A stretch of DNA of 64,000 nucleotides from IMG/VR virus record IMGVR_UViG_3300046463_000164; one strand, written 5' to 3'. The translations under genes and the position numbers were made by a program. Positions 1 through 26,797 of the stretch are shown here, piece by piece (the stretch's first letter is position 1; the number at the start of each line of letters is the position of its first letter). A model generated the notes under the pieces. That model worked only from the letters and a program-made list of their open reading frames with translations. It made no database searches and had not been told where the DNA came from. This DNA is from a virus.

Positions 1-123
1 AAAATCGTGAAGACCCGAACGGTTCCCTAGACCCATCCAAACGTTCTTACCGTCGATAACGATTCTATCGCCTTCGTTTTTCGCGTAATCGATAATAACC
101 CGCTTAAGTTGAGCCGCTTTCAT
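1..123 (-). CDS. hypothetical early protein, runs off window start (MKAAQLKRVIIDYAKNEG...)
   Basis: ATG at 123 preceded by GGAG RBS and promoter module; open to position 1. Confidence 0.7.
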   Translation of the reverse strand, partial: MKAAQLKRVIIDYAKNEGDRIVIDGKNVWMGLGNRSGLHDF

Positions 124-202
124 TTTTGTTCTCCGCTTCGTTTCGATAAAGGAATTATACCGGAAACCTAGGAAAAACAAAATTGGAATTTTCTATCAAC
201 TC

Positions 203-361
203 TCAAGCCGCGATAGAGGTAATCTTATCGTGCGGCCTAACGCGAACCGTCGCGGTTTCCCGAAAGACTCGCGCGGCGTCCGACTCGTTTAGAGAACGGA
301 CTAGCCCCGCGTAACGCCCGTTCAAGAATACTCGATAACTTTTATAAATTTGATGTATCAT
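203..361 (-). CDS. 52-aa hypothetical early protein (MIHQIYKSYRVFLNGRYAG...)
   Basis: manual translation; GGAG RBS; resembles 623-766 product. Confidence 0.65.
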   Translation of the reverse strand: MIHQIYKSYRVFLNGRYAGLVRSLNESDAARVFRETATVRVRPHDKITSIAA

Positions 362-518
362 TTTAATAGTTCTCCCTCTCAGAACAAAACCATATTCTAT
401 TAGGAGAAACCCGGCTAATTACATTTTACTATCGCATTTCAGAACCCATAGAAAATGTCTATCAGACGAGTAAAATAAAAGCCCGCGTAAGCGGGCTTTC
501 GCTTCGGGTTAATCCCGA

Positions 519-620
519 TTACCGGAAACGGAAAATGAAGGTATGAATCGCCTGATCGAGTAGGGATAGAAGCGCCCCCACAAAAAGCGTACCCGCGACC
601 CCTAGAACGATAGCTTCCAT
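519..620 (-). CDS. 33-aa membrane peptide (MEAIVLGVAGTLFVGALLSLLDQAIHTFIFRFR)
   Basis: manual translation; hydrophobic; directly downstream of 623-766. Confidence 0.55.
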   Translation of the reverse strand: MEAIVLGVAGTLFVGALLSLLDQAIHTFIFRFR

Positions 621-622
621 CT

Positions 623-766
623 TTAATCCTTTCGCGCCGTAAGGTTATCGAACTTCGTTACCGTCTTACTATTACACCACAAAAACGCGCTAATCGCTTC
701 CCGCTCGCTAGTCGCGCCAATTTTACCCTTAAAAACCCCGTCTACAAAAATCGAAAACCGCTTCAT
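623..766 (-). CDS. 47-aa hypothetical early protein (MKRFSIFVDGVFKG...)
   Basis: internal ATG of ORF track 623..811 with GGAG RBS. Confidence 0.65.
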   Translation of the reverse strand: MKRFSIFVDGVFKGKIGATSEREAISAFLWCNSKTVTKFDNLTARKD

Positions 767-927
767 TTCCGTCCGTCTCCGGTAAGACTTACTATAAAAG
801 GTTAGGTGCAACGGAAATAATTATAGTACGTTACCGAACGAAGAAGATCATACCCCTCCATTTCAGTCGGGAAAGTAATTGTTACCGACTACCGGACGTT
901 AAAAAGCCCGCTTTCGCGGGCTTTTCT

Positions 928-1239
928 TTATCTACTACCGCTAATATAAGGGAAAACGATAAAATATTTACTAACGGGATATTCCGCGTATCGTTTAACC
1001 GCGCTAGTAAGCGCTCCGCGAGTCGTAATACAACCCGTACTTTCCGCGCCAAAATTCGCCGGTCCCCCGAAAAATCTTACAGCGACCTCCGAAATTTTGT
1101 CCGGGTCTTCCGTAAAGAAAATTAGGGTAATCCCTTTCTCGCCGTTCTTTAGCGCTTCGGTTTCCGCTTCGCGTATCGCCTTAACTAACGCGGTCTTACC
1201 GTTCGGGGTTAATTCGTTTCCGTACTTATTCGTAATCAT
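928..1239 (-). CDS. hypothetical early protein, 103 aa (MITNKYG...)
   Basis: ATG at 1239 after GGAG RBS and TATAAT; terminator downstream. Confidence 0.75.
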   Translation of the reverse strand: MITNKYGNELTPNGKTALVKAIREAETEALKNGEKGITLIFFTEDPDKISEVAVRFFGGPANFGAESTGCITTRGALTSAVKRYAEYPVSKYFIVFPYISGSR

Positions 1240-1382
1240 TTTCCAACTCCGCGTTAATTCGATAAAGGAATTATACGCGAAACCGCGATAAAACAAAATA
1301 GTATTTTTCTATCAGAATTGAAGTTTCAATAGATTTTAACTATCGACAAGATAAAATAAAAGCCCGCTTTCGCGGGCTTCGT

Positions 1383-1571
1383 CTAGCGGGGTTTAGCCTT
1401 TCGCCCGCGTCTTTTCGGTCGTCCTATCCCGTTTTCGTCGCTAAACCGCGATACGAGAATAAGCGCCGCTAAATCGGGTTTCTCCGTAACGTAATCCGCG
1501 AACGAAAGCCGATTTCTAGCGTCTAGCCGATATTTCCGATAGGCTAGAAAAATTTCCGTACTAGTTTGCAT
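1383..1571 (-). CDS. hypothetical basic protein, 62 aa (MQTSTEIF...)
   Basis: ORF track; coupled to upstream small ORF. Confidence 0.65.
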   Translation of the reverse strand: MQTSTEIFLAYRKYRLDARNRLSFADYVTEKPDLAALILVSRFSDENGIGRPKRRGRKAKPR

Positions 1572-1660
1572 TATTCCTTCCAATTTTTAATATATCGGAA
1601 AGCGTCGAGCGCCGCGAAGCCTTCCGCGCGAAGCCAACGATAGTATTCTAGGCGTTTCAT
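1571..1660 (-). CDS. 29-aa peptide (MKRLEYYRWLRAEGFAALDAFRYIKNWKE)
   Basis: manual translation; GGAG RBS; TAATG overlap with next gene. Confidence 0.55.
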   Translation of the reverse strand: MKRLEYYRWLRAEGFAALDAFRYIKNWKE

Positions 1661-2023
1661 TTTCAACTCCGTTTAACTAGACTCTAGTATAACGGGTTTC
1701 TTTCCAAAAAGGGGCATACCCTTATAAACCGTATGGATATGTTCGTCTAGTCCGATAGCGCCGCCGATAGGCGAAACCCGCGTTAAGCGGGCTAGATGAG
1801 CCGCTACGGGCTTCGCTACGCGTTCCCTAGGGCTAGTAGCTCTCCCCATAACAGCCCGTTATAGGCTCATCTAGACATTTACCTATCGGCTTATAATTCT
1901 TGATAGGTAAAAGCTATTGGCTCGTGGTCTGGCGGATTAGACGACCCGCGTTTGCGACCGTTAGAGCTATTATACTTGAAATTGTAAAAAAGTAAAGCCC
2001 CGAAAGGGGCTTTTTCTAACTCC

Positions 2024-2113
2024 TTAGTAGCTAACCGGATAATAGACGAGAAAACCGATCGTAGCGAAACAAGCGATAGCGAAAGCTAATAGAACTTTCG
2101 AGCCGATAGTCAT
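2024..2113 (-). CDS. 29-aa membrane peptide (MTIGSKVLLAFAIACFATIGFLVYYPVSY)
   Basis: manual translation; single hydrophobic segment; terminator follows. Confidence 0.55.
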   Translation of the reverse strand: MTIGSKVLLAFAIACFATIGFLVYYPVSY

Positions 2114-2305
2114 TTTTTCCCGCTTCGGGAAAACCGGGTTAAACGAGCGATAATTTTCCACTTTTTCTACTCCGCGTTAATTCGATAAAGGAATTATACC
2201 CGAAAACGCGAATCTACAAAATTGTAAATTTCTATTGAAATTGTAAACCGATAGAAATTGTCTATCAAGTAGACGATAAAAAACCCGCTTACGCGGGCTT
2301 TCGGG

Positions 2306-2608
2306 TTAGCCTTCTTCGCTATCGGGTTCCCCGTAAGCGGGGAATTCTACTCCGTAGCGACTCTTAAGAATCTCCCGTATCTCGTCTAGCGCCTTTAGCG
2401 TCGCGTTAAACGCGTTCGTAGCCGCTTCTCCGTTCGCTTTAAACTCCGACGATACCGCCGAATTAAAACGGATAATACCGTTAGAGCGGTTAAAATCGAT
2501 TTCCGCGTAAACGTTTAGCGCGTTAACTAGAGTCTTAGCGAGCGCCGAAAGGTTAAGCGCCGCGCGTTCGTTATCGTTCTTAATAATCGCCGTATCCGCT
2601 GCATTCAT
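2306..2608 (-). CDS. hypothetical early protein, 100 aa
   Basis: ORF track; RBS, promoter module and terminator. Confidence 0.8.
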   Translation of the reverse strand: MNAADTAIIKNDNERAALNLSALAKTLVNALNVYAEIDFNRSNGIIRFNSAVSSEFKANGEAATNAFNATLKALDEIREILKSRYGVEFPAYGEPDSEEG

Positions 2609-2750
2609 TTTTCTACTCCGGGTTAATTTCGATATAAGGATTCTAACGGATAACGCGGGAATTCCAAAATTGTAAATTTCTATCGGTTTACAATTTCAAT
2701 AGAAATTGCCTATCAAGAGGGTAAAATAAAAGCCCCTTTCGGGGCTTCGC

Positions 2751-2951
2751 TTATTCCGCTTCGTAAGCCTTAAACGCCGTATCTACTACCCGCGTTATTT
2801 CTTCCCGTCCGAACGCTTCGAAAAGAGCCCGCGTAATCCCGGTTTCCTCTAGTAGCGAGTTTAAAAGGTTTAGCCTATCGTCTATAGAAAGGTCTTTAAT
2901 ACTAATCTCTACCTTAACCGCGCGGATAATCGAGCTATAACGGACTTCCAT
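2751..2951 (-). CDS. hypothetical early protein, 66 aa
   Basis: ORF track; coupled to upstream ORF. Confidence 0.7.
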   Translation of the reverse strand: MEVRYSSIIRAVKVEISIKDLSIDDRLNLLNSLLEETGITRALFEAFGREEITRVVDTAFKAYEAE

Positions 2952-3055
2952 TATTTTTCCCCTTTAAGGAATTTTCGGATTTTAACGCTACGCGAACCGG
3001 ACCCCGCGAGCGAGAGTAAAGCGAAAAGAACGGCGAATAAAATTAGGGCTTTCAA
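2951..3055 (-). CDS. 34-aa membrane peptide (TTG start, MKALILFAVLFALLSLAG...)
   Basis: TTG after GGAG RBS; hydrophobic N-terminus. Confidence 0.55.
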   Translation of the reverse strand: MKALILFAVLFALLSLAGSGSRSVKIRKFLKGEK

Positions 3056-3211
3056 TTTCTCACTCCGGTTTAGATTCGATATAAGGATTATAGACGAAGC
3101 CCGCGAAATTCCAAAATTGTAAATTTCTATCAATAATTATTTCCAATAGAAATTGACTATCGCACAGACGTAAAAAAGCCCGCGTTAAGCGGGCTTCGTC
3201 TATCGGGCTTA

Positions 3212-3682
3212 TTAGCCCCGCGATTCGAGATAATCTAACGCGATAATACGCGCGGTTTCCTCTTTAGGCGCGGTTTTAAGTTTCGCTACCGTTACGGAAC
3301 CGGCCGCGAAAAGCGCCGTAACCTTAATAACGTATTCCCCGTCTTTCGGTTCGGACGAAACGAGATAATTAGCGCCTAATAGGAAAGAAAACGATTCTTT
3401 ACGGGGTTCCGGTTTCTTTACTTCGGGGATTTTAGCCGCCTTTAGGTACGCTTCGATATCTTCCCGCGAGTCGTCCGAAAATTCCGCGTTATAGCTTTTA
3501 AGCCATTTCGTAATATCTTCGCTATCGTTACTTCCCGCGTCGTCGATTAATTCGCCGTTCGCGTCTTTAAAATCGATATTAAAGCGGAAATAACCGTTAT
3601 AGATAACCGCGATAACGTTATCCGAAATTTTACCCGTAAGCGTAATTTTTTCCGGGTTAAAAACAAATTTCACCGCTTTCAT
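3212..3682 (-). CDS. hypothetical early protein, 156 aa
   Basis: ORF track; RBS, promoter module, terminator. Confidence 0.8.
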   Translation of the reverse strand: MKAVKFVFNPEKITLTGKISDNVIAVIYNGYFRFNIDFKDANGELIDDAGSNDSEDITKWLKSYNAEFSDDSREDIEAYLKAAKIPEVKKPEPRKESFSFLLGANYLVSSEPKDGEYVIKVTALFAAGSVTVAKLKTAPKEETARIIALDYLESRG

Positions 3683-3842
3683 TTTCGCTACTCCGTTTAG
3701 ATTCGATATAAGGATTCTAACCTAATCCCTATAGATTCCAAAATTGTAATTTTCTATCGTCTTACAATTTCAATAGCAATTGCCTATCATATAGACGAAG
3801 AAAAACCCGCTTTCGCGGGTTCGTTTCTAAGGTAACTTCCCG

Positions 3843-4178
3843 TTACCGGTAATCGTCCCGGTTCGCTTTACGCTTAATCTCGCCTAGGAATAGTTTAACG
3901 GCAACGCTTTCCGTATCGATTTTAAGCCCGAACGCTTCGAACGCTCTAACGACTTCGGGGAATTCCCGAAAATATAACGGCGCGATAAGGTCGATACTAT
4001 CGTCGTCGTTTTCGGGGAAAATCGAAACGATATAAGCGCGCCTACCGTCGCGGGGCCGTTTCGTTGCGTCGTGAATACAATAATAGAATCCGCGTTCCGG
4101 GATAGAATAGCTTACGAGAGTAGGCGTAAAATCGTAGACTTCGCCTTTCGGGTCGAATTCGAATTTTAGCGTCTGCAT
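3843..4178 (-). CDS. hypothetical early protein, 111 aa
   Basis: ORF track; RBS, promoter module, terminator. Confidence 0.8.
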   Translation of the reverse strand: MQTLKFEFDPKGEVYDFTPTLVSYSIPERGFYYCIHDATKRPRDGRRAYIVSIFPENDDDSIDLIAPLYFREFPEVVRAFEAFGLKIDTESVAVKLFLGEIKRKANRDDYR

Positions 4179-4347
4179 TTATTAACTCCGTTTAGTTTCG
4201 ATATAAGGATTATAGACGAAGCCCGCGAAATTCCAAAATTGTAAATTTCTATCAACCCCTGAAATCAATTAACAGAGCCTATCGGATAAAGCGAACGGAC
4301 GTAAAAAAGCCCGCGTAAGCGGGCTTCTCTTTTAAAATCGGGGCTTC

Positions 4348-4854
4348 TTAATATCCCCCGCGAATCTCGATTTTAGCGGGGTTCGCGGGATTACGATAAA
4401 TCTCGTAATAAAGCGCGTCGCTAGTTCCCGCTTCTAAGCCTAAATCGTCGTCCTCCGTAATCTCGTAAAGAACGCGGATTTCTAGGCCCGCTACTTTAAC
4501 GCCGTCGATTACGAACGTTTTACGGAAAATATCGGTAATATCGTATTTCGAAAGCGAGCCGCCGATTTCGGCTTTTACGAGTTTAGTAACCGTTTCCGCT
4601 TCTTTAGCCGCGTTACGGGAAAGCTCCGTATAATAACGGTCCGAATTAGCGAAACCGATATTTTCGCGCCGTTTCTCGTTAAGGCGCTCCGCTTTACGTT
4701 CTTCGGCGCGTTCCGCTTTTTCTTTCGGCGTAAGACGGCGCGAACGGTTCGCGCTACGTTCTTCGGCTTCGCGCGCTTCTACGGCTTCGCTAGGCGAAAG
4801 CGAACGGCAAAGCACGCCATTAGGCAAACGACGAAAAACGAAAGCAGCATTCAT
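4348..4854 (-). CDS. hypothetical early protein, 168 aa (MNAAFVF...)
   Basis: ATG at 4854 after GGAG RBS; charged helical middle. Confidence 0.8.
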   Translation of the reverse strand: MNAAFVFRRLPNGVLCRSLSPSEAVEAREAEERSANRSRRLTPKEKAERAEERKAERLNEKRRENIGFANSDRYYTELSRNAAKEAETVTKLVKAEIGGSLSKYDITDIFRKTFVIDGVKVAGLEIRVLYEITEDDDLGLEAGTSDALYYEIYRNPANPAKIEIRGGY

Positions 4855-5197
4855 TTCAATCTCCAGCGAATTAGTTACGGTAAGGAAAGTATAACCGAAT
4901 CCGCGAGAATCCAAAATTGTAAATTTCTATCGGTTATACAATTTCAATAGGAATTGGCTATTTCATCGCTAGGGCGTCTAAACGGGCTTCTAACGGGTTC
5001 GCGCGGTTTAGGCTACCTATTCCCTTAACGATAGTCCGGAACCCCTCTAGCGGGCTTTAAAACGCGTCTAAACCGCTTTACGCCGTCTAGCCTAGGTCTA
5101 GCCCGCGTCGAACCGATAGGAATTGTCTATTAGAAATTGTAGACGATAGATTTTGACTATCAAGTAGGCGAAAGAAAAGCCCCTTTCGGGGCTTCGC

Positions 5198-5689
5198 TTA
5201 AACCGGTTTAAAACGGTATTTTTCGACTAGGGCGTTAAACTCGCTTTCGCTTTCGATTCGGTTTAGGTCGGATAGGAAAGGGTAATAATCGAACGCGATA
5301 GAGTAACCGGGTTTTACTTCGTCCGTTCTTTCGAAAACCTTTAGCGAGTAACCCGCGTCGAGTTCTAGACTAAAGTAATCTTCGGTAAAATCCGCGATAA
5401 AGCGGATATCGAAACCGGGAATACTTTTAACGCCTAGGCGTTTATCGCCGTTTCCGTTAATCGGGGTAGTTTCTAGCTCGTTTTCCGTAATAATAACGTA
5501 ATAATCGCCTTCGAAATTTTCCGAAAACGCCTTTTCGAATTCCGCGAAAGTCTTAACCCCGTTAAAATCTAGATTATTACGCGGGTTAGCGATAGCGTTA
5601 TTAATCGCGTCTAGCTCGGTTTCGCCCGATCCTAGCGCGTCCCCCGCGATATCGTTTAAACCGGCCGAAAAGTAACGAATCGTTTTCAA
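5198..5689 (-). CDS. hypothetical acidic early protein, 163 aa (TTG start)
   Basis: AGGAG RBS; terminator downstream. Confidence 0.8.
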   Translation of the reverse strand: MKTIRYFSAGLNDIAGDALGSGETELDAINNAIANPRNNLDFNGVKTFAEFEKAFSENFEGDYYVIITENELETTPINGNGDKRLGVKSIPGFDIRFIADFTEDYFSLELDAGYSLKVFERTDEVKPGYSIAFDYYPFLSDLNRIESESEFNALVEKYRFKPV

Positions 5690-5699
5690 AATTCTCTCC

Positions 5700-5813
5700 T
5701 TAGAACGAGAAACGGGAAGCGAGCGTAAGCCCGATAGTTTCCGCGAAAATAAGAACCGCGAGGAACTTAACCGCGAGCGAGTCGCGCGTAAGGTAATACT
5801 TAATCGATTCCAA
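5700..5813 (-). CDS. 37-aa membrane peptide (TTG start, MESIKYYLTRDSLAVKFLAVLIF...)
   Basis: manual translation; same AGGAGAGAATT-TTG leader as next gene. Confidence 0.6.
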   Translation of the reverse strand: MESIKYYLTRDSLAVKFLAVLIFAETIGLTLASRFSF

Positions 5814-5971
5814 AATTCTCTCCTTAAGGACTAGACTCTAGTATAGACGAAAACCCGAGAATTCCAAAATTGTAATTTTCTATCAATTTTGAAGTTCCAA
5901 TAGGAAAATACAATCTTGAAAACGCGTCGGTTTCCCTTATACTAGCCTTACCTTAACGAACTAACCCGGAG

Positions 5972-6166
5972 TTGAAAATGCGCGTAAACCTGATCGATGA
6001 TTTCGGTAACGAAATTCGCCCGGTTCTAGACCTTAACGCGGCTACGGTTTTCCGCTTTATCCGCTTCGCGTTAGACGGCGCGATAGAAGGGATAGCGAGC
6101 GGGGTTATTAAGGGCGGGGACGCGGACGAATCGAGTCTAAAGTATTTCGGGCTAGTCGCCGTATAA
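5972..6166 (+). CDS. hypothetical protein, the only rightward gene of the early array
   Basis: TTGAAA-17-TATACT promoter at about 5916-5943, GGAG RBS, terminator 6187-6209. Confidence 0.7.
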   Translation: MKMRVNLIDDFGNEIRPVLDLNAATVFRFIRFALDGAIEGIASGVIKGGDADESSLKYFGLVAV

Positions 6167-6281
6167 AGAAAGCCCGTTTAAAGAGAAGCCCGCGAAAGCG
6201 GGCTTTTTTACGTCCGTCGAAAACGGAATAGGAAAAGAAAAAGCCCCTTTCGGGGCTTCGGGTCTATAACGCGCGGGGTTT

Positions 6282-6626
6282 TTACTTATCCGCCTTAACT
6301 TCGAACCGTTCGCCGGTTTCGCTATTCGCTTCGAGCTTTTCGGCTTCGTCCTTCGCTTCCCGATACGAAAGAAGCGAAATAACCTTTTCGCCCGTCGCGT
6401 AGTTAATAACCGAATAAGTCGATTCTTCCGGACGCTCCGCGAAAACCGCGTTAAGGTTCTTTACTTCGCGAGCGATAGCGAGTAGCTCGTTAAACTCGTA
6501 ATAGCCCGTCATTTTTACCGCGTAGCCTTCGTTATCCCGGACTAGCTCGGTATCGCCCGAAAGCGTACCGTCGAACGAAAGGTTAGGGCGGGCGTTAAGG
6601 ATATCTTGAACCGTGAAAGTTGCCAT
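6282..6626 (-). CDS. hypothetical early protein, 114 aa
   Basis: ORF track; RBS, promoter module, terminator. Confidence 0.8.
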   Translation of the reverse strand: MATFTVQDILNARPNLSFDGTLSGDTELVRDNEGYAVKMTGYYEFNELLAIAREVKNLNAVFAERPEESTYSVINYATGEKVISLLSYREAKDEAEKLEANSETGERFEVKADK

Positions 6627-6976
6627 TTTTCTCTACTCCGTTTGCGTTTCGTTAAAGTAAGGCTAGTTTACCCGATAAGCGCCAATTTCCCCTAGGAATA
6701 TCCGATTGTAATTTTCTATCAACTCTGAATATCAATAGAGAATTGCTATTTCAGCGCTAACCTAGCTAGATGAGCCGCTATGAGGTTTCGTCGCGTTCCG
6801 ATAGTCGCCTATAGCCTAGAGCCTAAAAGCCCGCTAGGGAACGTATAGGAAAGCCGGTTCTCTCCTATAGCGTAATCGCCCTATAGCCTAGAAAGCCCCG
6901 ATTCTCTCCCGTCTAGCTCCGTGCCGGTGGCCCGCGCGTATAGAGCCTATCTCCCTAGAGAAGTAAAGAACAATTA

Positions 6977-7235
6977 GCCTAGTAGTATTGGTACCTGGAT
7001 AAGCTCCCCCTTATACTACGTCTTGAAGGGAAAGTCTAGTCCAATATCACCCCCAACTCCAAGCGAGTCCGGAACGCCTTACCGGAGCTACGCTACCTAT
7101 AAGGGAAAACTATCGAAAAATGCGTGTGATAGTCCGTTGTAGCCTAGTAGTATTGGTACCTGGCTAAACCTAGGATAGACTAAAATTATCAAAATATGTG
7201 TGTGATAGTCGGTTGTAGCCTAGTAGTATTGGTAC
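6977..7235 (+). repeat. three direct copies of GCCTAGTAGTATTGGTAC
   Basis: starts at 6977, 7142, 7218; the last two share a longer upstream context (GTGTGATAGTC.GTTGTA). Confidence 0.9.
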
Positions 7236-8453
7236 TAGTGTATATAATACTATAGTAGCGGAGCCTAGTACCAATGGTTCTACCCTATAGAAATTGACTA
7301 TGAACGGTGTAAATGTGATAGATCACTCAACTATCCCTAGGGGAGAATTGATATGGAAACACTATTGACTATCAACTTCAAGCCACGATAGGAATTGTCT
7401 ATGGATAGTCCTAGCCTATTACCACAACTTTCCGAGAGCCTACGGCAATGTACTATCGATCCCGCCTGCCAATAGTCTTTCCCTATCCATAGCCCTAGCC
7501 TATCCAGGGTACCAACTCCGATAGGAAATATCAATCGATCCAGCTATAGGGGAAATCTATTGACTCATATTAGCTCTAGGGAAAACCTATCAATTTTCCG
7601 AACCTGTGAATTCCGAAAAAGTAAAGACATTTCGAAAATATTTCAATATAACCGAAAGCCGTAGAAAACGCCGATCAAAATCTAGGCGTCTACGTGAGCC
7701 GCTACGGGCTTTCTAGGGTGGGTCTAAGCTAGGATGGCGTGAGCTTCGTAGAATCCTCATAGGCTGAGTTTGGTATTTCTAGCCCCGTATAGCCTCTAGG
7801 TTCACATTCTCTCGTCTATAGGCTATAGGGATAGCGCCGCTAGGCGAGAAAGCCCGTAGCGAGCCTATACGAAAGCCTAGACACATTATTAAGCGGGACT
7901 ATCGACTATGCATATCGATAGGTAAATTTATCTTTACTTTTATAGAATTGAGGGCATCGATGTGTAACCCTATAGAGCGGAAGGTTATTCGAAAGTCTAG
8001 TTACATTTCTCTATAGGGATAGGCAAGTCGATAGGAAAATACAATTAGACTTTCTTTGCTAGTCGTGATCGAGAGATAGGTTTGGGCTATGGGCTGGACG
8101 ATGGTGATAGGAAAATACAACTAGACGGAATGTGAAAAGTCGTATAGGGGAAATTGCGGGTTCCCGGCGGTGGTGGGGCGTAGCTCACACAGTCTTATAC
8201 AAAGTTGATTTCAAAAATTGTCCACACCACGGTATCCAGAAAAATATTGAGCCTGGGGGGGGTATTGTCAGAAAAATGTGAGGGTGGGGTATTGGAAATA
8301 AAAAATGTGGGGTGGTGGGCTAGATATGTTTCCAACTCTTTCTTGTCACTATGGCCCTAATGTTGGGTACGGTGACATTAAACCTTTTCGCCAAATCATT
8401 CTTATGGGTGCCTGCGGCAAACTCTTGCCTTATCTCTAAAACAATCTCCGCAG

Positions 8454-8811: not shown

Positions 8812-9327
8812 CTATCCTGTAAACAATGATTCAAATAACTCGTCCCTCAATCTAGTCCTCACCCGTCCCATTACTTGACCTAACAGGTTCAGACCCTTCC
8901 AATTCTTCGGGTCCGCTGCTTCAGGACACACGGTAATTCCGACTCCCCAAATGCTGTCGTAGGGAGAAGCCTCAACGAATATCTTATTGTCTGTCTTCAG
9001 CAACTGGTATCTGAGTTCATCGTTCTGCTTGAACTTCAGATAGACCGCATGCTCCATTATCTGTTCCCGGCCTTGCTCCCAGAAGAACTGATTGAAGTTT
9101 GCGATTGACTTCCGTCCATAAGCCTTAGCATCCCTAGGATCAATGAAGTTGGCGATGATATCCATCTCAGCCCTATTCCTATTGAAGTAATAGGCTTTCA
9201 GCGCGATGAACAATCCCTCGCTGTGGTGGAACTCGGTTCCGTCAAACATAATCCTACAAGGATGAAAATTGCTATAGATACTCTCCTTGCTAAAGAACAG
9301 AATCTTGTCATCTATCTCTAGTTGCAA
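8812..9327 (-). CDS. NADAR (YbiA-like) family ADP-ribosyl/N-glycosidase
   Basis: SNF, KF.QN..L...LL.T, VEASPYD.IWG.G and G.NLLG..M..VR motifs. Confidence 0.9.
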   Translation of the reverse strand: MQLEIDDKILFFSKESIYSNFHPCRIMFDGTEFHHSEGLFIALKAYYFNRNRAEMDIIANFIDPRDAKAYGRKSIANFNQFFWEQGREQIMEHAVYLKFKQNDELRYQLLKTDNKIFVEASPYDSIWGVGITVCPEAADPKNWKGLNLLGQVMGRVRTRLRDELFESLFTG

Positions 9328-15642: not shown

Positions 15643-15705
15643 ATTTTCCTCTTAAAATGTAAAAGCATCCATAGATTATACTATGGATGCCGACAAAAGT
15701 CTATC

Positions 15706-16512: not shown

Positions 16513-17700
16513 TTATTCCTGTTTCAGTAGATAGCTGTTAGAGATAGCCTTGAAGCTAAATTGCGTCTGGTTAGACTTGAACACAATACCTTCCCGCTTC
16601 ACACCCTTGTTCATACCTGGACCTTCAGCAAACGCAAGGATTGCATCAATCAGAGCACGGATAGCAGTTTGGTCGCCAGTTTTAATGAGTTCAATATCCT
16701 TGGTGAAGTCGCTGAGTTTCGCGGTTTCATTCAGAACTTGAACATAGTTCAGACCGAGTTCAGTTGCGATAGCACGAGCATCCTTCGGCAGCATATATTC
16801 TTGCTTGTCGATATTGAACACATCGTAGATGTAAAACTCGGGCTTTTCAACCTTCTCATAGTTCGCTTGGATCGATGGGGAGATCAGTTCACCTTGAATC
16901 GCGATGTTCTGATTCAGATTCTCCAGGCGTTCCAGGATGCCTTCTTGCGCGACAAACTTAGCAAAATGGCTATCTCCCTTCGGGTCTAGATTCACATTCC
17001 GCGAGCAGACGCCTTGAGCAATATCAGGAATCGAGACAAAACCAAACTTCTTCTTGACCATCTGGGCCAACTTGCCAAACCAGCCCAGCTTCCGGTTTTC
17101 CCGCTTCCGAATTTCCTCAACATACGAGGTGAATTGCTCAGAATCCTTATTCAGATGGAATACCGTCATCGAAGAACCGTCAATCTTGATCGATACTTCA
17201 TAGTCGTCGTCAATATGACGAACCAGTTGACCAGCACTGTTCTGCACGCGCTCTTGATCAGTCTTGAAGATGAACGAAGGGAATGCCCAGCTGGAGCTTG
17301 CGCCGCTACTATTAGCATTTGCCTCGTTGAGACTTTCCCACTTCTCAATCTTCAAGACTTCGGTAACATCGTCACCTTCAGCCGGATTCTTGATCTCAGG
17401 AAAGTCCTTGACTTTCAGCACCAGACCCTGGGAGATTTGCTTACGCAGCTTAATCGTCTTAAGACGCATACCACGCTTGCTACCCCAGTTGATGAATCGA
17501 GGTTCGAAGGTCTTGTAACGAGGATCATCTGCGTTCAGGAAGGAGTCGATCTCATAATACACTGCAAGATCACCAACTGCGAAATCGCCCTTAGTAACAA
17601 CGACGCTCCACCCAAGAACGTCTACCACTTCGATCAGGTCCGCACCAGGAATCGGACGAATGTTTGTGATCTTTTGAATACTAGCAAGCTTTCTACTCAT
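16513..17700 (-). CDS. RNA ligase (DRB0094/Rnl2-like) with N-terminal OB-fold
   Basis: RKLASIQ..PIPGAD.IE N-terminus; KIDGSS, QGEL, REGIVFK and FKAISN.YL ligase motifs. Confidence 0.9.
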   Translation of the reverse strand: MSRKLASIQKITNIRPIPGADLIEVVDVLGWSVVVTKGDFAVGDLAVYYEIDSFLNADDPRYKTFEPRFINWGSKRGMRLKTIKLRKQISQGLVLKVKDFPEIKNPAEGDDVTEVLKIEKWESLNEANANSSGASSSWAFPSFIFKTDQERVQNSAGQLVRHIDDDYEVSIKIDGSSMTVFHLNKDSEQFTSYVEEIRKRENRKLGWFGKLAQMVKKKFGFVSIPDIAQGVCSRNVNLDPKGDSHFAKFVAQEGILERLENLNQNIAIQGELISPSIQANYEKVEKPEFYIYDVFNIDKQEYMLPKDARAIATELGLNYVQVLNETAKLSDFTKDIELIKTGDQTAIRALIDAILAFAEGPGMNKGVKREGIVFKSNQTQFSFKAISNSYLLKQE

Positions 17701-18690: not shown

Positions 18691-18773
18691 TATCTCTCCA
18701 TCGGGGTTAATAAAAAACGACACATAGCTATTATACTATGTGTCGTTATAAAAGTAAATATGTAATTTCTGAC

Positions 18774-20051
18774 TTAAATCGTCACAGACTGAATGACGTA
18801 TGTACCTTGTTGCTTCTTAGTCTTGTAAGATGCGAGGGTTTCATCAAAGTTATACATCGGTTCATCGTCAACATTCTGTAGGTCAATCTTGATTCCGTCA
18901 ATCTCACCAAACTTGTTGTGAACCAAATAAACATTCTGCGATGCGCGACCCGAAAGATTCAATGCACGTTCAGAGTATGCATTACTGCCCGGCAGACCAG
19001 ATGATCTTGCATATAGATCAGAGACTTGAGCGCAGTGGATGTGTCCCATCAAAACATACGATATCAATGTACCCCTGATTGCGTATCGAGCTTTGATTTT
19101 CTCGATTTCGGATTCAGGATTTCGAGCCATGCCCTTGTGCAGATTTCCATGTACAAGGAGAATATTGTTACCATTGACATTAACTACAGCCTCCACCGGA
19201 TTTTCCACCGGAACAAATTTGATGCCAGCATGACCCTTGAACAGATAGGTCAACATGTTGTGGATTACAATATCATAAGAGTCGCCAGCAAGGAAGTCCG
19301 AGAAGTGAACGTGTTCACCAACGCGAGATTCGTTACCAGTAATACTTGCTACTGTTACGTTGAAATCCTTATTCAGATCAATAATAATCTGTTGGATGAT
19401 ATCTACTGCCAAGAATACGGCTCTTGAGCGATTAGTTGCTGCGTTAGTGATTTCATCCAAGCGACGGTCGCTGTTCAAAAGATCGCCTGTCAGGAACAGA
19501 GCAACTTCCTTGACTCCATTAGCTTTGAACAGAGGTTTCGCCTTGCGGATTAGCTTGTGTAGACGCTTAGATGCGATTTCAAAGTTGAACTCATTATCAC
19601 GTAGGTCATCAATAAGTTCATTGAAGTGAACATCGCTTAGTTGGACAATACCTACCGGAGCTTGACTGGCGGTGTATTCATGCAGCTTGGTTCTGGAGAA
19701 CTCATTCTTGTCCAGCACTTCCTTCATACCTTGATGAAGGGCTAGAATCATATTGTCTACGCGTGCGTGTTCCCGGAATGACTTACGTTCAACGCGTTGA
19801 ACATCTTGTAGCTTGAATACCTTCTTAGCCAGCTTGATGTTCTCGTCAACGATCTCAGCATCGTCAATGCCATCAAAATCCTCGACAGACTCGAATACTT
19901 CCGGGATTCCCTTTAGCTTTACAAGCAGGCGGCTAACCGTTGAACGAGAAATACCCAGTTCAGCCGCAATAGCCGTCTTTGTTTGGCCTTCTTCTGCCAG
20001 CTGCAATAGTTGTTCAATTTCTTCTGATGTGAGTTTTGTATTAATGCTCAA
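18774..20051 (-). CDS. HTH plus calcineurin-like metallophosphoesterase
   Basis: IAAELGISRSTVSR HTH; SDVH, GDL, GNE, HG and GHIH motifs. Confidence 0.85.
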   Translation of the reverse strand: MSINTKLTSEEIEQLLQLAEEGQTKTAIAAELGISRSTVSRLLVKLKGIPEVFESVEDFDGIDDAEIVDENIKLAKKVFKLQDVQRVERKSFREHARVDNMILALHQGMKEVLDKNEFSRTKLHEYTASQAPVGIVQLSDVHFNELIDDLRDNEFNFEIASKRLHKLIRKAKPLFKANGVKEVALFLTGDLLNSDRRLDEITNAATNRSRAVFLAVDIIQQIIIDLNKDFNVTVASITGNESRVGEHVHFSDFLAGDSYDIVIHNMLTYLFKGHAGIKFVPVENPVEAVVNVNGNNILLVHGNLHKGMARNPESEIEKIKARYAIRGTLISYVLMGHIHCAQVSDLYARSSGLPGSNAYSERALNLSGRASQNVYLVHNKFGEIDGIKIDLQNVDDEPMYNFDETLASYKTKKQQGTYVIQSVTI

Positions 20052-20052
20052 G

Positions 20053-21078
20053 TTAGGTTCCTCTTATTTTATTGAACACCAACTTGGCTTTGAGACCTTG
20101 ATAAGTGTTCCGCTTAATCACGCTTTCGATATCATCTAAGGATAATCCGCCATCCTTGACGGCATCATTGATATCCTTCCATTCAAACTCTTTTGGAAAT
20201 AAGACAACTTTGACTCCCGACCCAATTGCCTTATCGATATGACGACAAACATCTTTATTCCGATATTGAGCGTCATAGATATACACGTCACCCTCTACCT
20301 TAGTCAGGTCAGCGTCTGCCGAAGCTAGACAGTTATCAACAAACATACTGTCAATCGGACCTTCGCAAACTCTAACCTCTCGACTGCGATCAACTCTATC
20401 CATACCAAACACCTTAGACACCGCGTCGTGTTTCTTGACTGTGATGTATCTAATTTTGTCTGTTGGATCTAGAGAACGGCCTTGATAACACAAAAGCTCG
20501 CCAAACTCATTGTAAAATGGGATGACGAGCCTTTTGTCTTCTGGCATCTTCTTCGCATATTCCTCATCTTTGAAAGACGCGGTCATTGCTCTGAAGTTTT
20601 CTGTGTACATCAGATAGTCTAGGTATTTATCGGGGATCAAACGACCCTTAACATACCGAACAGCTAGATTATCCTCAGGCAAATCTGAAAGTTTGGCGGC
20701 TCCAACAAGCTCAACAGTATCCAGGCGCGGATCAATCACCGGACTGGTTTCTGTTGCTGTCTCTTGAAACATCTGTCTAGGCTCTCTCCCGAACTTATCC
20801 CGGAACTTCTCAAGACGATATTCGCGGAAAAGCCCTGGGTCCCAGTCTTTCAGAAATGAATGGAATGACATCGAAAAGCCGCAGTTTTTACATTCAACAT
20901 TGTACCCCGTGGAACCATACTTAACATTCTCATAGAAATAGAAACGCGTGCGAGTGCCCTTTCTACCATCACCGCACTGAGGACACTTACACAACGCAAC
21001 GTTGGGTCTAATCCATTTAAACCTTTCAAGGCGTCCTGATAGAAAATTAACATATTGCTTATCAATCAGAACCGACAT
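20053..21078 (-). CDS. 61: DNA primase (T4 gp61-like)
   Basis: CPQCGD..CKNC zinc ribbon; LVIPF, YQGR, EGPIDSMF and KDIND motifs. Confidence 0.92.
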   Translation of the reverse strand: MSVLIDKQYVNFLSGRLERFKWIRPNVALCKCPQCGDGRKGTRTRFYFYENVKYGSTGYNVECKNCGFSMSFHSFLKDWDPGLFREYRLEKFRDKFGREPRQMFQETATETSPVIDPRLDTVELVGAAKLSDLPEDNLAVRYVKGRLIPDKYLDYLMYTENFRAMTASFKDEEYAKKMPEDKRLVIPFYNEFGELLCYQGRSLDPTDKIRYITVKKHDAVSKVFGMDRVDRSREVRVCEGPIDSMFVDNCLASADADLTKVEGDVYIYDAQYRNKDVCRHIDKAIGSGVKVVLFPKEFEWKDINDAVKDGGLSLDDIESVIKRNTYQGLKAKLVFNKIRGT

Positions 21079-21081
21079 CTA

Positions 21082-22800
21082 TTACGCCTCCACAGTCATA
21101 TCGTCCTTCAGACGGTATGTGATCCTACGATCAAAATATTCATCAAATTCAGCAGCACGTTGACTGATGACGATCAGGTTAGTATCCTGACCAATAGTTC
21201 CCCACATGTCCATAAATTCCTCAACGCCTGAAGCCGATAGGTTTTCCAGGATTTCGTCTAGGATGAGAACATTGCAATCTACAGACGCTTTCGACTTCGC
21301 AATTTCTCGCCATGCAAGAAGGACAGCAAGATCGATACGCCGAAGTTGACCCGTTGAAAGGTTCCCCAGAGTCTGACCCTTGCGGTCGGGCGCAAACATG
21401 GCAACGTTAAACTCAGAGTCGATGTTGATCTGAACATATAAGTTTAACTGGTCTAGGATGTTATTTATAGCCTGATTCAGATATGGAACATACTGAGCTA
21501 CGATATTCGCTTTGATTCCATCGTCCTTCAGAATCTGAAGCAACTGCATATGTTCATCTTCTTGACTTTGAAGAAGATTTAACGCGCCAGTCTTTTCCTC
21601 AACTTCAGTATCAATCTTGAAACATTCCGCCTTCTCAGCCTGAATCAGATCATCTTCGTTCGAATCCACCATTTTGGCTTCGATATTTCTGATGTTAGTT
21701 CGGATAGACGATAGCTTAGTATCCAACTGGAACTTTACCTGACTAATCTTCTGATATTCAGCTTCGATTGCATTGTTGTTGTTAACCGCCTCTTGATACT
21801 TGGCGATTTCTTCTTCCAACTTCATCATTGGACCAACTAGCTCATCGCGTTTGATATCAGAATCTAACCGGATGCTATGCTTGTGCTCTTCAGTAACTGC
21901 TTGCTTGCAAGTCGGACAATCATGCAAAGACGTGATATTTTCGGCTGCTTTTGAAATATCGTCTAGCTTCATCTGAAAACGCTGATACATGGTCTTAACC
22001 TTACTCAAACTAGGTAAGGCGGTATCATCAATCTTGCTACTCAGAGTCGTCATCTTATCTGTGGCCATATTGATAAGAGTTACCGTCTTTTGCGCTTCTG
22101 ACTTCAGACCATCTAGTTCAGACCCGGTTTCCGCAAGTCTAGCTTTTTTCTTGTCTTCCAGAATCTGAACCGTTCGCTGACGACCTGCTAGCTTCGATTC
22201 CAGCAAACCGATATCATACATCGCTTGTTCGATCTGTTTACGAATCGCCTTAACCTTATCCTTGGTCAGCGTATTCATATGCGAGATAACAACCATATCC
22301 AGCATCTGTTCAACGAAGTCTCTACGTTCCTGAGTCTTCATCTGAACAAACGGAACAAATCGATCAACTCCTAGAGCAACGATGTTACAGAATGCCCGCT
22401 TGTCCATGCCGACGACTGATTGCAGATACGCTTGCATATCTCCGCCAGCAGCTTCGTTCTCAATCAGCTTGCCTTCACGATACAACTCAAATACAGCTGG
22501 CTTGTAACCGCGCTTCAGATTCCACTTAACGCCGCGAGTCTCGAAATCCAAAGTGACTAGACAGTCCTTGTTTGATTTCGAATTCACCAGACCGCCGATC
22601 TTACAATCTTTACCGTATGGTTCACCGAACAGAGCGAAATACAACGCCCAGATTGCTAGAGTTGACTTACCGCTGCCATTGTCGGTAGAAGCGATCAAGG
22701 TTGAAGGCGAAGCCAGATAATTGATAGATAACGGCATGTTACCGATACTTCGGAAATTCTTAGCCGTCAGTTCACCAAATACTATCTTATTGTCCGCCAC
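21082..22800 (-). CDS. 46: Rad50-like recombination ATPase (gp46)
   Basis: NGSGKST, CPTC zinc hook, LSTGQ signature, LILDE. Confidence 0.93.
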   Translation of the reverse strand: MADNKIVFGELTAKNFRSIGNMPLSINYLASPSTLIASTDNGSGKSTLAIWALYFALFGEPYGKDCKIGGLVNSKSNKDCLVTLDFETRGVKWNLKRGYKPAVFELYREGKLIENEAAGGDMQAYLQSVVGMDKRAFCNIVALGVDRFVPFVQMKTQERRDFVEQMLDMVVISHMNTLTKDKVKAIRKQIEQAMYDIGLLESKLAGRQRTVQILEDKKKARLAETGSELDGLKSEAQKTVTLINMATDKMTTLSSKIDDTALPSLSKVKTMYQRFQMKLDDISKAAENITSLHDCPTCKQAVTEEHKHSIRLDSDIKRDELVGPMMKLEEEIAKYQEAVNNNNAIEAEYQKISQVKFQLDTKLSSIRTNIRNIEAKMVDSNEDDLIQAEKAECFKIDTEVEEKTGALNLLQSQEDEHMQLLQILKDDGIKANIVAQYVPYLNQAINNILDQLNLYVQINIDSEFNVAMFAPDRKGQTLGNLSTGQLRRIDLAVLLAWREIAKSKASVDCNVLILDEILENLSASGVEEFMDMWGTIGQDTNLIVISQRAAEFDEYFDRRITYRLKDDMTVEA

Positions 22801-23872
22801 TCAAAACCTCCATATAAACACTCTTGGCCAATTCCTTCAGCCGATCTTTGTTAATTTCTTCGCCCTGTTTGTCGATATAGGCGTTCATAGCCGATAGAGT
22901 ATCTAGCGCAAGAACCTCTTCAGAAATCTCAACCTTCTCTACTTCAACCATTGTGGTATCAATAATCTTGTAGTCGATCATCTCAGCTTTGGTTAGCAGA
23001 TCAACAAACTTCTTGTAATGCTTCACCTCAGGCTTTTCCTTCACCAGAATCTTAGCAATCGTGCCCTTGTAGGCTTCCAGAGACTTAGCATCATATTTCT
23101 CAGCCGGATCATATTCAATGACAGAGAACAGAGTCATATGATCTTCGTTCTTATGAAGTTCCAATTCGTCTGTGTCTAGATCAAGAGTCCAGAAGCCCCG
23201 ATTGTTTCCATCCTGAACATCACCCCAGGTAATGTGATACGGTGTACCAACCATCGTTACATTGGTATGTTGAGACACCGTATGGAAGTGACCGCTGATG
23301 ACTCGCTTGAACTTCTTGAATTCCTTCGGATCAATGCCGTGTTCACAGAGAACACCAGGAATCATCGGCATACCGGCCATTTCAAAGTGACCAAAAACGT
23401 AGTCGGCTTTGAGCCCGGCCAGTTCTTCAAACAACCTAGTCTTGTTGTTCTTGTTGATCCAAGGCATCAATACAATTGTTTTACCGCCTTGCCGGAAGAA
23501 ATGATTACAATCAATAGCTGCATCAAACATGATATGATCATCATTCAATAGCATCAATAGATTAAGAGAACAAATTTCATTACTATCACGATAGAACATC
23601 TCATGATTACCGCCGTATGTATACCAACGTTCTATGCCATACTTTTTCAAAAGCGGCGAAAACTCGTTGATGAAGAAATGAAGTACGTTCAGCTTGATAT
23701 GCTGACGGGTATCAAACATATCTCCAGTTTGGATGATAGTCGTGATCCCCATAGCTTGAATCTTCTTCAGGGCTTCTTCCAACCAGTAAATCTGGAAGGC
23801 CAGAAAATCGTTGTTTCCTGCTTTTACGCCGAAATGCATATCACCAATGATAGCGACTTTATTCGAATTCAA
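22787..23872 (-). CDS. 47: Mre11-like recombination nuclease (gp47)
   Basis: GDMHFG, GDMFD, GNHE and SGHFH motifs; adjacent to gp46. Confidence 0.93.
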   Translation of the reverse strand: MNSNKVAIIGDMHFGVKAGNNDFLAFQIYWLEEALKKIQAMGITTIIQTGDMFDTRQHIKLNVLHFFINEFSPLLKKYGIERWYTYGGNHEMFYRDSNEICSLNLLMLLNDDHIMFDAAIDCNHFFRQGGKTIVLMPWINKNNKTRLFEELAGLKADYVFGHFEMAGMPMIPGVLCEHGIDPKEFKKFKRVISGHFHTVSQHTNVTMVGTPYHITWGDVQDGNNRGFWTLDLDTDELELHKNEDHMTLFSVIEYDPAEKYDAKSLEAYKGTIAKILVKEKPEVKHYKKFVDLLTKAEMIDYKIIDTTMVEVEKVEISEEVLALDTLSAMNAYIDKQGEEINKDRLKELAKSVYMEVLSGGQ

Positions 23873-24569
23873 TATTCAGCTCCTCACCCAATTCAAGATC
23901 AACATCTTCAGGAGTATCTTCAGCCGCAGACAGATCAAACATGAAGCTATCGAATTCTACTTTCTTCTCACGCTTTTTCTGTTTATCAAGTCCATACTTC
24001 TCTTCATATTCGGCAATCTTGCTCATGAAGTCTTGACCCAGAGCACCGATATCCGCTGTTTCACCATCACCGCTCAAGTCTGCCATATCTTCATCGCGGA
24101 ATGCGTCAGCGCCACCCAGAAGTTGGAAACTCTTATACTTGAGATACTGTTCGCGTTTCTCAGCGTCGATACGGTGGGTGAAGCTACGCCAGATAATCAT
24201 ATTGATATAACCGAACGCGCTGACCTTACCTTTCTTCTCGGACTTCTTCTTAGGGTTGAAGTTGTGAATATATTTGACGCAGTGAAGAATCGCGTCCGAC
24301 TTCATTTCATCCAAATACGAATAGGCATGGAAGTTGTGACGTTTGCCCATCGCTTCTGACATATCGTAAATCGCTTCACCAACGGCCTCGGGCAGCTTGG
24401 GGCGTTCTTGACCTGCCGCAACTAGAGCATCAAAGCGTTCTTTCCATTCGGAGAGGATAGCAGTCAGATGATCATCATCAATATAATGTCGGCTAGGCTT
24501 TGCTGCTACGGGAGCATCTTTGGAGAAGGAAATTGACTCTACTTCGTTGTCTTCAATAAGTTCAGGCAT
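23859..24569 (-). CDS. 55: late-transcription sigma factor (gp55)
   Basis: HYID, NF..YSY.DEM.SDAI, NF.P.K and AF.Y...I...F..RI..EK; T4-like synteny. Confidence 0.88.
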   Translation of the reverse strand: MPELIEDNEVESISFSKDAPVAAKPSRHYIDDDHLTAILSEWKERFDALVAAGQERPKLPEAVGEAIYDMSEAMGKRHNFHAYSYLDEMKSDAILHCVKYIHNFNPKKKSEKKGKVSAFGYINMIIWRSFTHRIDAEKREQYLKYKSFQLLGGADAFRDEDMADLSGDGETADIGALGQDFMSKIAEYEEKYGLDKQKKREKKVEFDSFMFDLSAAEDTPEDVDLELGEELNIEFE

Positions 24570-25062
24570 TCAGCAACCTTTCATGTGAAATCTTTTGTAC
24601 ATCATATTTATCATTGGACATTGACATATCCACGTTTCTTGAACCGAAACCAGCGTATTCGTCTGCTAGTTCGTTTCCGTAAGTACCTGCGTGTCCCTTA
24701 ACCCAGCTAATTTTGGCATTGCCGTGCTTATCCCAGGCTTCAAAGAGCGGGATGAACATATCTGGATTTTTGATACCTTGGTATTTGTTTCGCTTCCAGC
24801 CGTGTCGCCATTCATTGATGGACTTAACGACATATTGCGAATCGGAATAGATTTGGATTTCCCAGTCTTTCTTGTCCGCGAATGTCAGCATCGTAAATAA
24901 AACTCCGCCAATCTCGCCTCGATTATTTGAGGATGGGGCAGGGAGGTGCCCATATCGAACAAATTTCTTTTGACCCATCATGAAGACCGCGCTCCAACCA
25001 CCGACACAGTCGGGTTTGCCATTTGCGATCGATGAGCCGTCAGTCCATACTTCAAGCTTCAT
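24562..25062 (-). CDS. rnhA: ribonuclease HI
   Basis: TDGS, NNRGE, SDSQYV and WVKGHAG..GNE.AD motifs. Confidence 0.92.
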   Translation of the reverse strand: MKLEVWTDGSSIANGKPDCVGGWSAVFMMGQKKFVRYGHLPAPSSNNRGEIGGVLFTMLTFADKKDWEIQIYSDSQYVVKSINEWRHGWKRNKYQGIKNPDMFIPLFEAWDKHGNAKISWVKGHAGTYGNELADEYAGFGSRNVDMSMSNDKYDVQKISHERLLNA

Positions 25063-25303
25063 TCATTTCCTAATCAGTTAACACTATAGGAATTATACTA
25101 TGGAGTATGTGAAAAGTAAAGTCCTTTCTATGAGTTTTTATTAGCAGTGATAGGTGAGTCCGTAACGGCTCGGGCTATCCTTTACTATACCTATAGGATA
25201 AAGCCCGCCTGCGGCCTGCTAATCGTTGCCTATCGACATCTTAACCGGTTACACTACCAGGAAACCTTATATAAAACTTTCATAAAAATAAGTGAAATAC
25301 CAC

Positions 25304-25332
25304 TTTACTTTTACATAGGATGGGGGTATAAT
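25304..25332 (+). promoter_or_regulatory. rightward sigma70-like promoter TTTACT-17-TATAAT with no downstream ORF
   Basis: exact match to the recurring phage promoter motif. Confidence 0.8.
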
Positions 25333-25338
25333 ATCGGC

Positions 25339-25664: not shown

Positions 25665-25679
25665 GTTTCTACATAGGGA

Positions 25680-26389: not shown

Positions 26390-26403
26390 GGTCAGTCCTA
26401 TTA

Positions 26404-26754: not shown

Positions 26755-26770
26755 AAATGGAGAGTCTATA

Positions 26771-26797
26771 TATTTAGCAAGCTATAAATACTAAATA
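26771..26797. promoter_or_regulatory. divergent late promoters (CTAAATA on both strands, TATAAATA on +)
   Basis: T4 late consensus TATAAATA; CTAAATA also at 36247, 42396, 46283, 48816, 51724, 52675 and 52883 before late genes. Confidence 0.75.

Follow-up and report, generated by a model that had tools for sequence, protein, structure and literature searches.

In the M6, ViI and phiW-14 phages, hypermodified thymidines derived from 5-hydroxymethyl-deoxyuridine (5-hmdU) were placed at TG (and TC) by restriction mapping, and TG is what the M6 kinase, a fusion of the domains PF18748 and PF18723, modifies (PMC6449724). Occupancy of TG sites is nearly complete in Acinetobacter phage SH-Ab 15599 (PMC13458397). 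Here we describe a 64,000-nucleotide stretch of viral DNA (IMG/VR record IMGVR_UViG_3300046463_000164, hereafter the window) which opens with an array of small, predicted immediate-early genes purged of TG and of its complement CA. The phage resembles those four in its homologous block for a predicted thymidylate synthase (TS)-type dUMP hydroxymethylase and in PF18723, and the purged dinucleotide is the one modified in them (PMC6449724, PMC13458397). Unlike ViI, phiW-14 and M6, it shows a regional TG/CA depletion, PF18748 was undetected in its clade, and its modification is a predicted one. We favour, with somewhat less than even confidence, the explanation that the phage keeps its own TG-directed thymidine hypermodification out of the predicted immediate-early module.

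Several other systems share part of this pattern. The first-step-transfer region of T5 is early DNA free of restriction sites. With that region and with the leading regions of T7 and Autographiviridae (PMC12455610), the present block has in common small early genes, host-type promoters and a site avoidance limited to the block. Whereas the T5 and T7 leading regions avoid one or few sites of 5-7 bp, a whole dinucleotide is avoided here, at the cost of five amino acids. Hyperplastic regions of T4-type phages with promoter-early/stem-loop (PeSL) cassettes were reportedly described by Arbiol et al. in 2010; like them, the block has orphan open reading frames (ORFs) between an early promoter and a hairpin, cassettes exchanged between strains and a T4-like backbone, and we know of no dinucleotide purge described in PeSL regions. 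The CpG depletion driven by ZAP in vertebrate RNA viruses is likewise a dinucleotide-level selection across codon phases, but it acts on RNA, genome-wide and much more mildly, whereas the present purge is at duplex level, regional and nearly complete. The host-takeover module of SPO1, with TF1, offers a further likeness, namely a phage of the 5-hydroxymethyluracil (hmU) type with dense small early genes under strong host-type promoters. In SPO1 all T is replaced by hmU with no sequence context, and we are aware of no TG/CA purge reported for this phage.

A TG/CA purge acting on duplex DNA

Dinucleotides were counted directly over the window, and the odds ratio (rho) was taken as CA plus TG observed over expected. 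In positions 1-6630, described in the initial annotation as depleted of TG/CA and rich in CG and TA, there are 106 CA against 431 expected and 57 TG against 390, with CG (726 against 341, 2.1-fold) and TA (584 against 493, 1.2-fold) in excess, a bias stronger than first stated. In 1-kb intervals, rho is 0.14-0.34 for 1-7000, 0.59 for 7001-8000 and 0.93-1.25 in all 56 intervals past 8 kb, so that the early region lies clearly below the rest of the window, as had been claimed. With rho at 0.0-0.3 in the block and about 1.07 elsewhere, the depletion is confined to the block; in the remaining ~160 kb of the phage genome TG/CA is normal or slightly raised. The longest CA/TG-free gaps in the block measure 535, 526 and 512 nt, and the two stretches earlier read by eye as lacking any CA or TG (4275-4806 and 5163-5686) indeed hold none by direct count. 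Over 8300-64000 (55.7 kb) the longest such gap is 55 nt, and at the background rate a 530-nt gap has a probability of about 1e-33. The purge is real and extreme.

Regarding its limits, the initial annotation was right that TG/CA is normal beyond about 8.3 kb, but the strong purge reaches 6.9-7.0 kb rather than 6630, is followed by an intermediate zone up to about 8.0 kb, and is not bounded by position 1. On the same contig it runs on, weakening, for ~5.6 kb beyond position 1, as seen in locus L081, which equals the window over 9 kb except for one single-base gap and extends past its first letter; the purged block thus comes to ~12 kb in total. The onset is sharp, at a repeat-dense, ORF-poor region of about 6.95-8.3 kb, and the purge then fades gradually downstream along transcription. 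Gene by gene in that direction, rho is 0.09, 0.00, 0.10, 0.12, 0.05, 0.00, 0.05, 0.11 and 0.25 for genes 1-9, then 0.27, 0.39, 0.45, 0.74, 0.46, 0.57, 0.52, 1.01 and 0.66, and about 1.0 thereafter. A 313-aa gene with normal TG/CA (L106:8944-9885, rho 1.01), ~9 kb beyond position 1, stands as an island inside the fading purge; it is kept across the clade, served as our marker gene, and has faint DUF3489 matches in relatives.

In the strongly purged genes, CA (rho 0.04) and TG (rho 0.09) are both lost from the coding strand, and all three codon phases are emptied, the codon-boundary phase included. Across codon boundaries, the normal gene set has 221 CA and 177 TG, against 2 and 8 for the strong set, whose size by expected count is less by a factor of ~2.6. 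Among half-purged genes, synonymous phases are down to 0.33-0.45 of normal, nearly equally for CA and TG, and the phase fixed by the amino acid is kept at 0.8-1.0 of normal. Untranslated regions, terminators and spacers are CA/TG-free as well. Furthermore, TG is depleted in 16 of 16 NTGN contexts (0.29-0.76), so no longer motif is hidden behind the dinucleotide.

These data bear directly on a constraint at the level of RNA or translation, under which early mRNAs would avoid CA and UG on account of an endoribonuclease, or would avoid the codons of missing or attacked tRNAs that the phage supplies later. Nine of the 17 assignable phage tRNAs do read CA/TG-containing codons (Trp, Gln, His, Cys, Met twice, Thr-ACA, Leu-TTG and Pro-CCA; our own count from the ARAGORN list), a set which may reflect no more than the usual codon compensation when the host is rich in GC. 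The explanation is nevertheless largely refuted by the codon-boundary counts, since these dinucleotides are read by no tRNA and accounted for by no amino acid. The terminators and spacers are purged too, and two separate RNA rules would be needed in place of one duplex rule. Known RNases that cut at pyrimidine-purine steps would lead to avoidance of UA and CG, the opposite of the enrichment seen here. We regard this explanation as highly improbable. The phage tRNA genes form a cluster of 18 on the minus strand (58399-63608), in which the call at 63110-63184 has an irregular 2-nt anticodon; an Rfam scan of the window returned tRNAs only.

The excess of CG and TA is accounted for by synonymous escapes (NCA to NCG and, across codon boundaries, T-G to C-G and C-A to T-A). 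The same excess of CG and TA is what would result if a context-specific deaminase, or mispairing of a modified T, turned TG/CA into CG or TA with no selection on the dinucleotide. Conversion of His, Gln, Cys and Trp codons should then have brought Arg to ~15%, and the proteins of the purged genes contain 6.5%, compared with 5.7% for normal genes, a result that tells against both directional hypermutation and a sequencing artefact. Moreover, the reading frames are undamaged, TG/CA is retained in promoters and start codons, synonymous swaps suffice for the CG excess, and any such process would hit the whole genome, whereas the effect is regional. A mutational origin is therefore very unlikely. 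As for an artefact, modified T misread as C during library preparation or sequencing would give false CG for TG in the right direction in a phage that probably has modified DNA. Every TG in the genome would suffer, however, not those of one block; start codons and promoters are read normally, the protein composition does not fit, and the same or a related sequence is recovered in independent assemblies from JGI, Logan and ENA. The artefact is refuted in practice and can hardly be the answer.

Because both strands, all codon phases and the non-coding parts are purged and Arg is not inflated, the constraint acts on duplex DNA and through selection, in agreement with the duplex-level constraint that had been proposed from the missing CA and TG. 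Selection acts on the duplex dinucleotide 5'-TG-3'/5'-CA-3'. Its reach into the proteins, also claimed before, holds: the 163-aa and 100-aa products contain no His, Gln, Cys, Trp or internal Met. The strongly purged genes end in TAA. When all residual CA/TG are listed, nearly all fall in promoter or operator boxes, in start codons (ATG, TTG, GTG) and in scattered Trp, Cys, His and Gln codons.

The purge is maintained by present-day selection, as seen by comparison with four strain variants (L085-L088) that are 89-97% identical to the window and differ from it at 183 aligned positions. At 174 of these the window has no CA/TG, and nine of the 174 substitutions create one, against ~57 expected, given that 42% of random transitions and 28% of random transversions would do so. 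One of the nine falls in coding sequence and the other eight in promoter parts between genes. The ratio of transversions to transitions (117:66) is as expected if CG-to-TG/CA transitions are removed. Whole promoter-ORF-terminator cassettes are inserted, deleted or replaced among the variants between flanks that are 96-99% identical, and the genes inserted in L085:989-1816 relative to window 5700-5960 are likewise CA/TG-free.

The early block and its relatives

The block comprises ~20 small orphan genes, all on the minus strand and most in a cassette of their own. A cassette combines a hairpin terminator rich in GC, ATAG-N7-CTAT boxes in a promoter region, the word GATAGAAATTTACAATTTTGGAATT, a sigma70-type promoter (TTGGAA-N16-TATAAT or TTGATA-N16/17-TACAAT) and a small ORF with a GGAG ribosome site (Table 1). 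The word GATAGAAATTTACAATTTTGGAATT occurs in six copies in the block and nowhere else in the window, and most residual CA/TG of the block lies inside this repeated early promoter. The purge is limited to a block of small genes with sigma70-type promoters.

Table 1. Positions of cassette elements in the purged block and of its upstream boundary.
Feature	Position	Strand	Remarks
Strongly TG/CA-purged cassette array, predicted immediate-early	1..6950	-	dinucleotide counts; continues ~5.6 kb past position 1
First early ORF, 114 aa	6282..6626	-	rho 0.09
Early ORF, 163 aa	5198..5689	-	TTG start; no CA/TG past start codon; no H/Q/C/W/M
Early ORF, 168 aa	4348..4854	-	rho 0.10; residual TG in N-terminal signal-like stretch
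Early ORF, 111 aa	3843..4178	-	rho 0.12
Early ORF, 156 aa	3212..3682	-	rho 0.05; Atlas model, predicted local distance difference test (pLDDT) 0.78
Early ORF, 66 aa	2751..2951	-	rho 0.00
Early ORF, 100 aa	2306..2608	-	rho 0.05; no H/Q/C/W/internal M
Early ORF, 103 aa	928..1239	-	ATG at 1237; rho 0.11
Repeated early promoter, example	4209..4253	-	GATAGAAATTTACAATTTTGGAATT then TTGGAA-N16-TATAAT
Further copies of conserved promoter 25-mer	2660-2684, 3107-3131, 3734-3758, 4907-4931, 5860-5884	-	
Second promoter type in block	5136..5163; similar at 2240-2268	-	TTGATA-N16-TACAAT
GC-rich hairpin terminator closing cassette, example	6240..6259	-	CA/TG-free
Other hairpin terminators	3803-3822, 2729-2748, 1994-2013, 1359-1380, 477-500, 4307-4326, 902-925		all CA/TG-free
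ORF-poor, repeat-dense boundary upstream of block	6950..8300	.	intermediate TG/CA; 31-54-nt direct repeats (6975-7292); many ATAG/CTAT boxes

The early products have few known relatives. None of ten early ORFs examined, the 163-aa one included, belongs to a PHROG family, and one early ORF has just three database homologues. In the protein Atlas, no usable relative was found for the 163-aa ORF and no fold relative for the 156-aa ORF. The 163-aa product is acidic (E17 and D13 against R7 and K9) and has no homologue in the related genomes G001 or G002. The exact early promoter pattern was not found in IMG/VR, and a search of G001 and G002 allowing three mismatches was also empty. Outside the block, a second promoter class occurs on the minus strand at 18716-18747 and 15664-15691 (TTTACT or TAGACT-N17-TATAAT); its -35 hexamers are without TG/CA, and TATAAT sits atop an 11-13-bp hairpin.

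Upstream of the block, the boundary region might act as an origin, as a signal for packaging or entry, or as a regulatory hub. The ends of two independent metagenome contigs fall inside it, at 8216 and 8279. A tandem 27-nt unit starting with a G8 run lies at 8255-8308, and strains differ by one G at 8254. Just outside the block, the window encodes an RNA ligase (PF09414 with an OB domain, 16513-17700) and a NADAR-domain protein (8812-9327); proteins of these types have repair or ADP-ribose-related functions and often accompany anti-defence genes. A search of metagenome contigs with the NADAR protein returned only distant, unrelated contexts, none purged.

The phage itself is a distant T4-like myovirus with T4-type portal, sheath, terminase, gp6 and Rad50-like proteins, its portal being 45% identical to cyanophage portals. 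Its sequences come from rhizosphere metagenomes, with no RNA run among the sequencing runs listed as containing it, and several JGI and Logan assemblies include them; GenBank phages gave no match to 1-8000 or to 20000-40000 by megablast. Five relatives show the same sharp onset and fade in the syntenic early block at different strengths, with odds ratios of 0.14-0.4 in L188, 0.18-0.4 in L189, 0.3-0.58 in L187, 0.44-0.65 in L191 and 0.42-0.7 in the IMG/VR genome G002. Across these five, the marker protein is just 41-63% identical, and L187 and L188 retain the promoter word. No purge is seen in L190/L192 (GC 57%), which is the most distant relative. Among ~3,900 other 1-kb intervals of the phage and metagenome loci fetched, only the block of G002 falls below 0.6.

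Restriction sites and first-exposed DNA

Short palindromes were compared with a second-order Markov expectation in the block and in the rest of the window. The strongest effect is on GATC, at 0.20 in the block (5 observed, 25 expected) against 0.73 in the rest, followed by GGCC (0.33, 5/15, against 0.61), GTAC (0.41, 7/17, against 0.61), ACGT (0.45, 14/31, against 0.90) and AGCT (0.46, 15/32, against 0.85). CTAG, TCGA, CGCG, TTAA and AATT are not avoided in the block. In the relatives, the GATC effect roughly tracks purge strength (L188 0.23, L187 0.41, L189 0.51, G002 0.78). The initial annotation had set restriction-site avoidance aside because palindromes such as GAATTC, GATATC and TCTAGA remain, and these are present, in 6, 4 and 4 copies. 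Its view stands insofar as the TG/CA loss extends to all 16 NTGN contexts, most of them non-palindromic, which rules out palindrome avoidance as the cause of that loss; it does not stand for the five tetranucleotides above, whose avoidance comes in addition. Such avoidance fits unprotected DNA and also DNA exposed before anti-restriction proteins are made, so it does not separate the explanation we favour from the following one.

In line with one of the candidates of the initial annotation, the block could be leading-end or first-exposed DNA, entering in a polar or stepwise manner as in T5 or T7 and evading a host nuclease or defence that reads CA/TG, independently of any phage modification. 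The sharp onset at a repeat-dense non-coding boundary and the fade along transcription are as in transcription-coupled entry, the stronger avoidance of restriction-type palindromes falls in the same block, and there is a precedent in which only motifs of the first-injected region matter (PMC12455610). Several points stand on the other side. The match of the avoided dinucleotide to the known hypermodification site is left unexplained, and depth in the contig data (weak evidence, from contigs only) shows no clear twofold terminal-repeat step over the block. The phage has a T4-type terminase and portal, and such phages usually package by headful, with permuted ends and no fixed leading end. In addition, no defence system that recognises a dinucleotide in unmodified DNA is known to us. 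Taken with these points, evasion by a leading end appears rather unlikely, though it is the main rival and deserves serious consideration.

A second activity that would spare the block, also among those candidates, is an early phage nuclease, or another DNA-damaging activity, that destroys host DNA at CA/TG and that the early module is built to survive. Early degradation of host DNA is common in T4- and T5-like phages, and the purge has the strand symmetry such an enzyme would impose. However, the other ~160 kb of the genome, with its normal TG/CA, would also be destroyed unless modified or still outside the cell, and the early ORFs showed no nuclease domain (PHROGs for ten, Atlas for two). 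We consider this quite improbable. Three further candidates were dropped: avoidance of CRISPR protospacer-adjacent motifs, as a regional purge is useless if the rest of the genome carries the motif; avoidance of RNA polymerase pause sites, as CG is equally part of the pause consensus yet enriched; and H-NS-type silencing, as TA is enriched.

Thymidine modification and the predicted role of the purge

The contig of the window encodes a 361-aa TS-family protein (L108:16910-17995; PF00303 match, 38 bits, E 1.3e-9), which is 40-42% identical to the copies of ViI, phiW-14 and TSW001 and 77% identical to that of G002. It is followed by a dNMP-kinase-like gene and dUTPase_2, in the order found in ViI, phiW-14, TSW001 and G002. 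From its homology, the protein is a predicted dUMP hydroxymethylase, part of a 5-hydroxymethyl-dU pathway. A PF18723 protein (HMUDK helical domain/aGPT-Pplase clade 1) is present in G001 and G002 (E 2e-61 and 3e-65), and at the syntenic position of the window genome 42 of 82 short words are shared with it; a GT4 glycosyltransferase is encoded in G001 as well. A single open frame of M6 holds both the kinase domain PF18748 and PF18723, which makes PF18723 plausibly the DNA-reading part. Of the three candidate activities put forward in the initial annotation, a phage base modification at TG/CA is thus the most supported, given the dUMP-hydroxymethylase block, PF18723 and the TG mapping in the literature. 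Its further suggestion that the modification blocks host RNA polymerase fares less well as regards the promoters, which in case of a block there would have lost TG/CA too, yet keep it.

According to the explanation we favour, the block would be the predicted immediate-early module, of host-takeover type, of a new T4-like phage that makes 5-hmdU DNA, and ongoing selection strips TG/CA from everything in the block able to do without. In the phages mapped so far, TG is the installation site of 5-hmdU-derived hypermodification; by analogy, a TG/CA-free segment should be free of it. We infer that T at TG is modified in this phage and that unmodified DNA is of advantage. The purge would then leave the predicted first-expressed genes nearly unmodified inside an otherwise hypermodified virion chromosome. 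Two versions of the benefit can be conceived, which are not separable on this evidence. In the first, unassisted host RNA polymerase would read these genes unobstructed on incoming, fully modified parental DNA. In the second, a host defence recognising the modified base would find no target in the genes whose products act first. The fading along transcription may represent time, with later genes read or exposed once early proteins are present.

Several observations weigh against this explanation. The early promoters keep TTG and ACAAT, so that modified T is apparently tolerated there. Genes also needed before replication (the TS block, the ligase) have normal TG/CA, and a simple roadblock on the template strand would not lead one to expect that both strands, template and non-template, are purged equally. 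PF18748, the catalytic domain of the 5-hmdU DNA kinase, was not found in G001 or G002, whether by family search, by tblastn or with a custom hidden Markov model; the chemistry, and hence the TG specificity, may therefore differ in this clade. The same domain was detected in ViI, M6, SP10 and TSW001 and weakly in phiW-14, and the kinase candidates in G001 and G002 are only small AAA_33 P-loop ORFs (L092:1621-2109 and L100:14324-14902). Negative family searches in these genomes are weak, since the PF00303 search missed the TS homologue of G002 that tblastn (77% identity) later caught. Furthermore, the whole genomes of ViI, phiW-14, M6, SP10 and TSW001, which all carry PF18723 and hypermodify T, show no regional purge of TG/CA or TC/GA, and the outgroup L190/L192 has the TS block yet no purge. 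The pathway alone is thus not the cause of the purge, and a clade-specific factor must make the modification costly, perhaps a sugar-type adduct of greater bulk or a host defence able to read it.

The retention of TG/CA in the promoters is open to another interpretation. If the only hypermodified T of the ~7-kb module sit at the promoter and operator boxes (TTG, ACAAT, ATAG-N7-CTAT), they could serve as an address label, by which host polymerase or a factor reading the modified base would recognise the early promoters only where the DNA is parental and fully modified, those on progeny 5-hmdU DNA being passed over. We regard this as distinctly unlikely; if true, it would amount to a chemical switch between parental and progeny templates.

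With 7 kb nearly free of TG/CA, the block may be the most extreme dinucleotide avoidance in a phage known to us. Entire proteins do without His, Gln, Cys, Trp and internal Met, and this state is common to a clade. If the favoured explanation of an unmodified immediate-early module is correct, it would connect two fields so far unlinked, context-specific DNA hypermodification and the design of immediate-early genes, and would imply that the cost of a protective modification is large enough to reshape genes and proteins. A regional TG/CA purge could then serve as a purely computational marker for such phages and for guessing the context of their modification.

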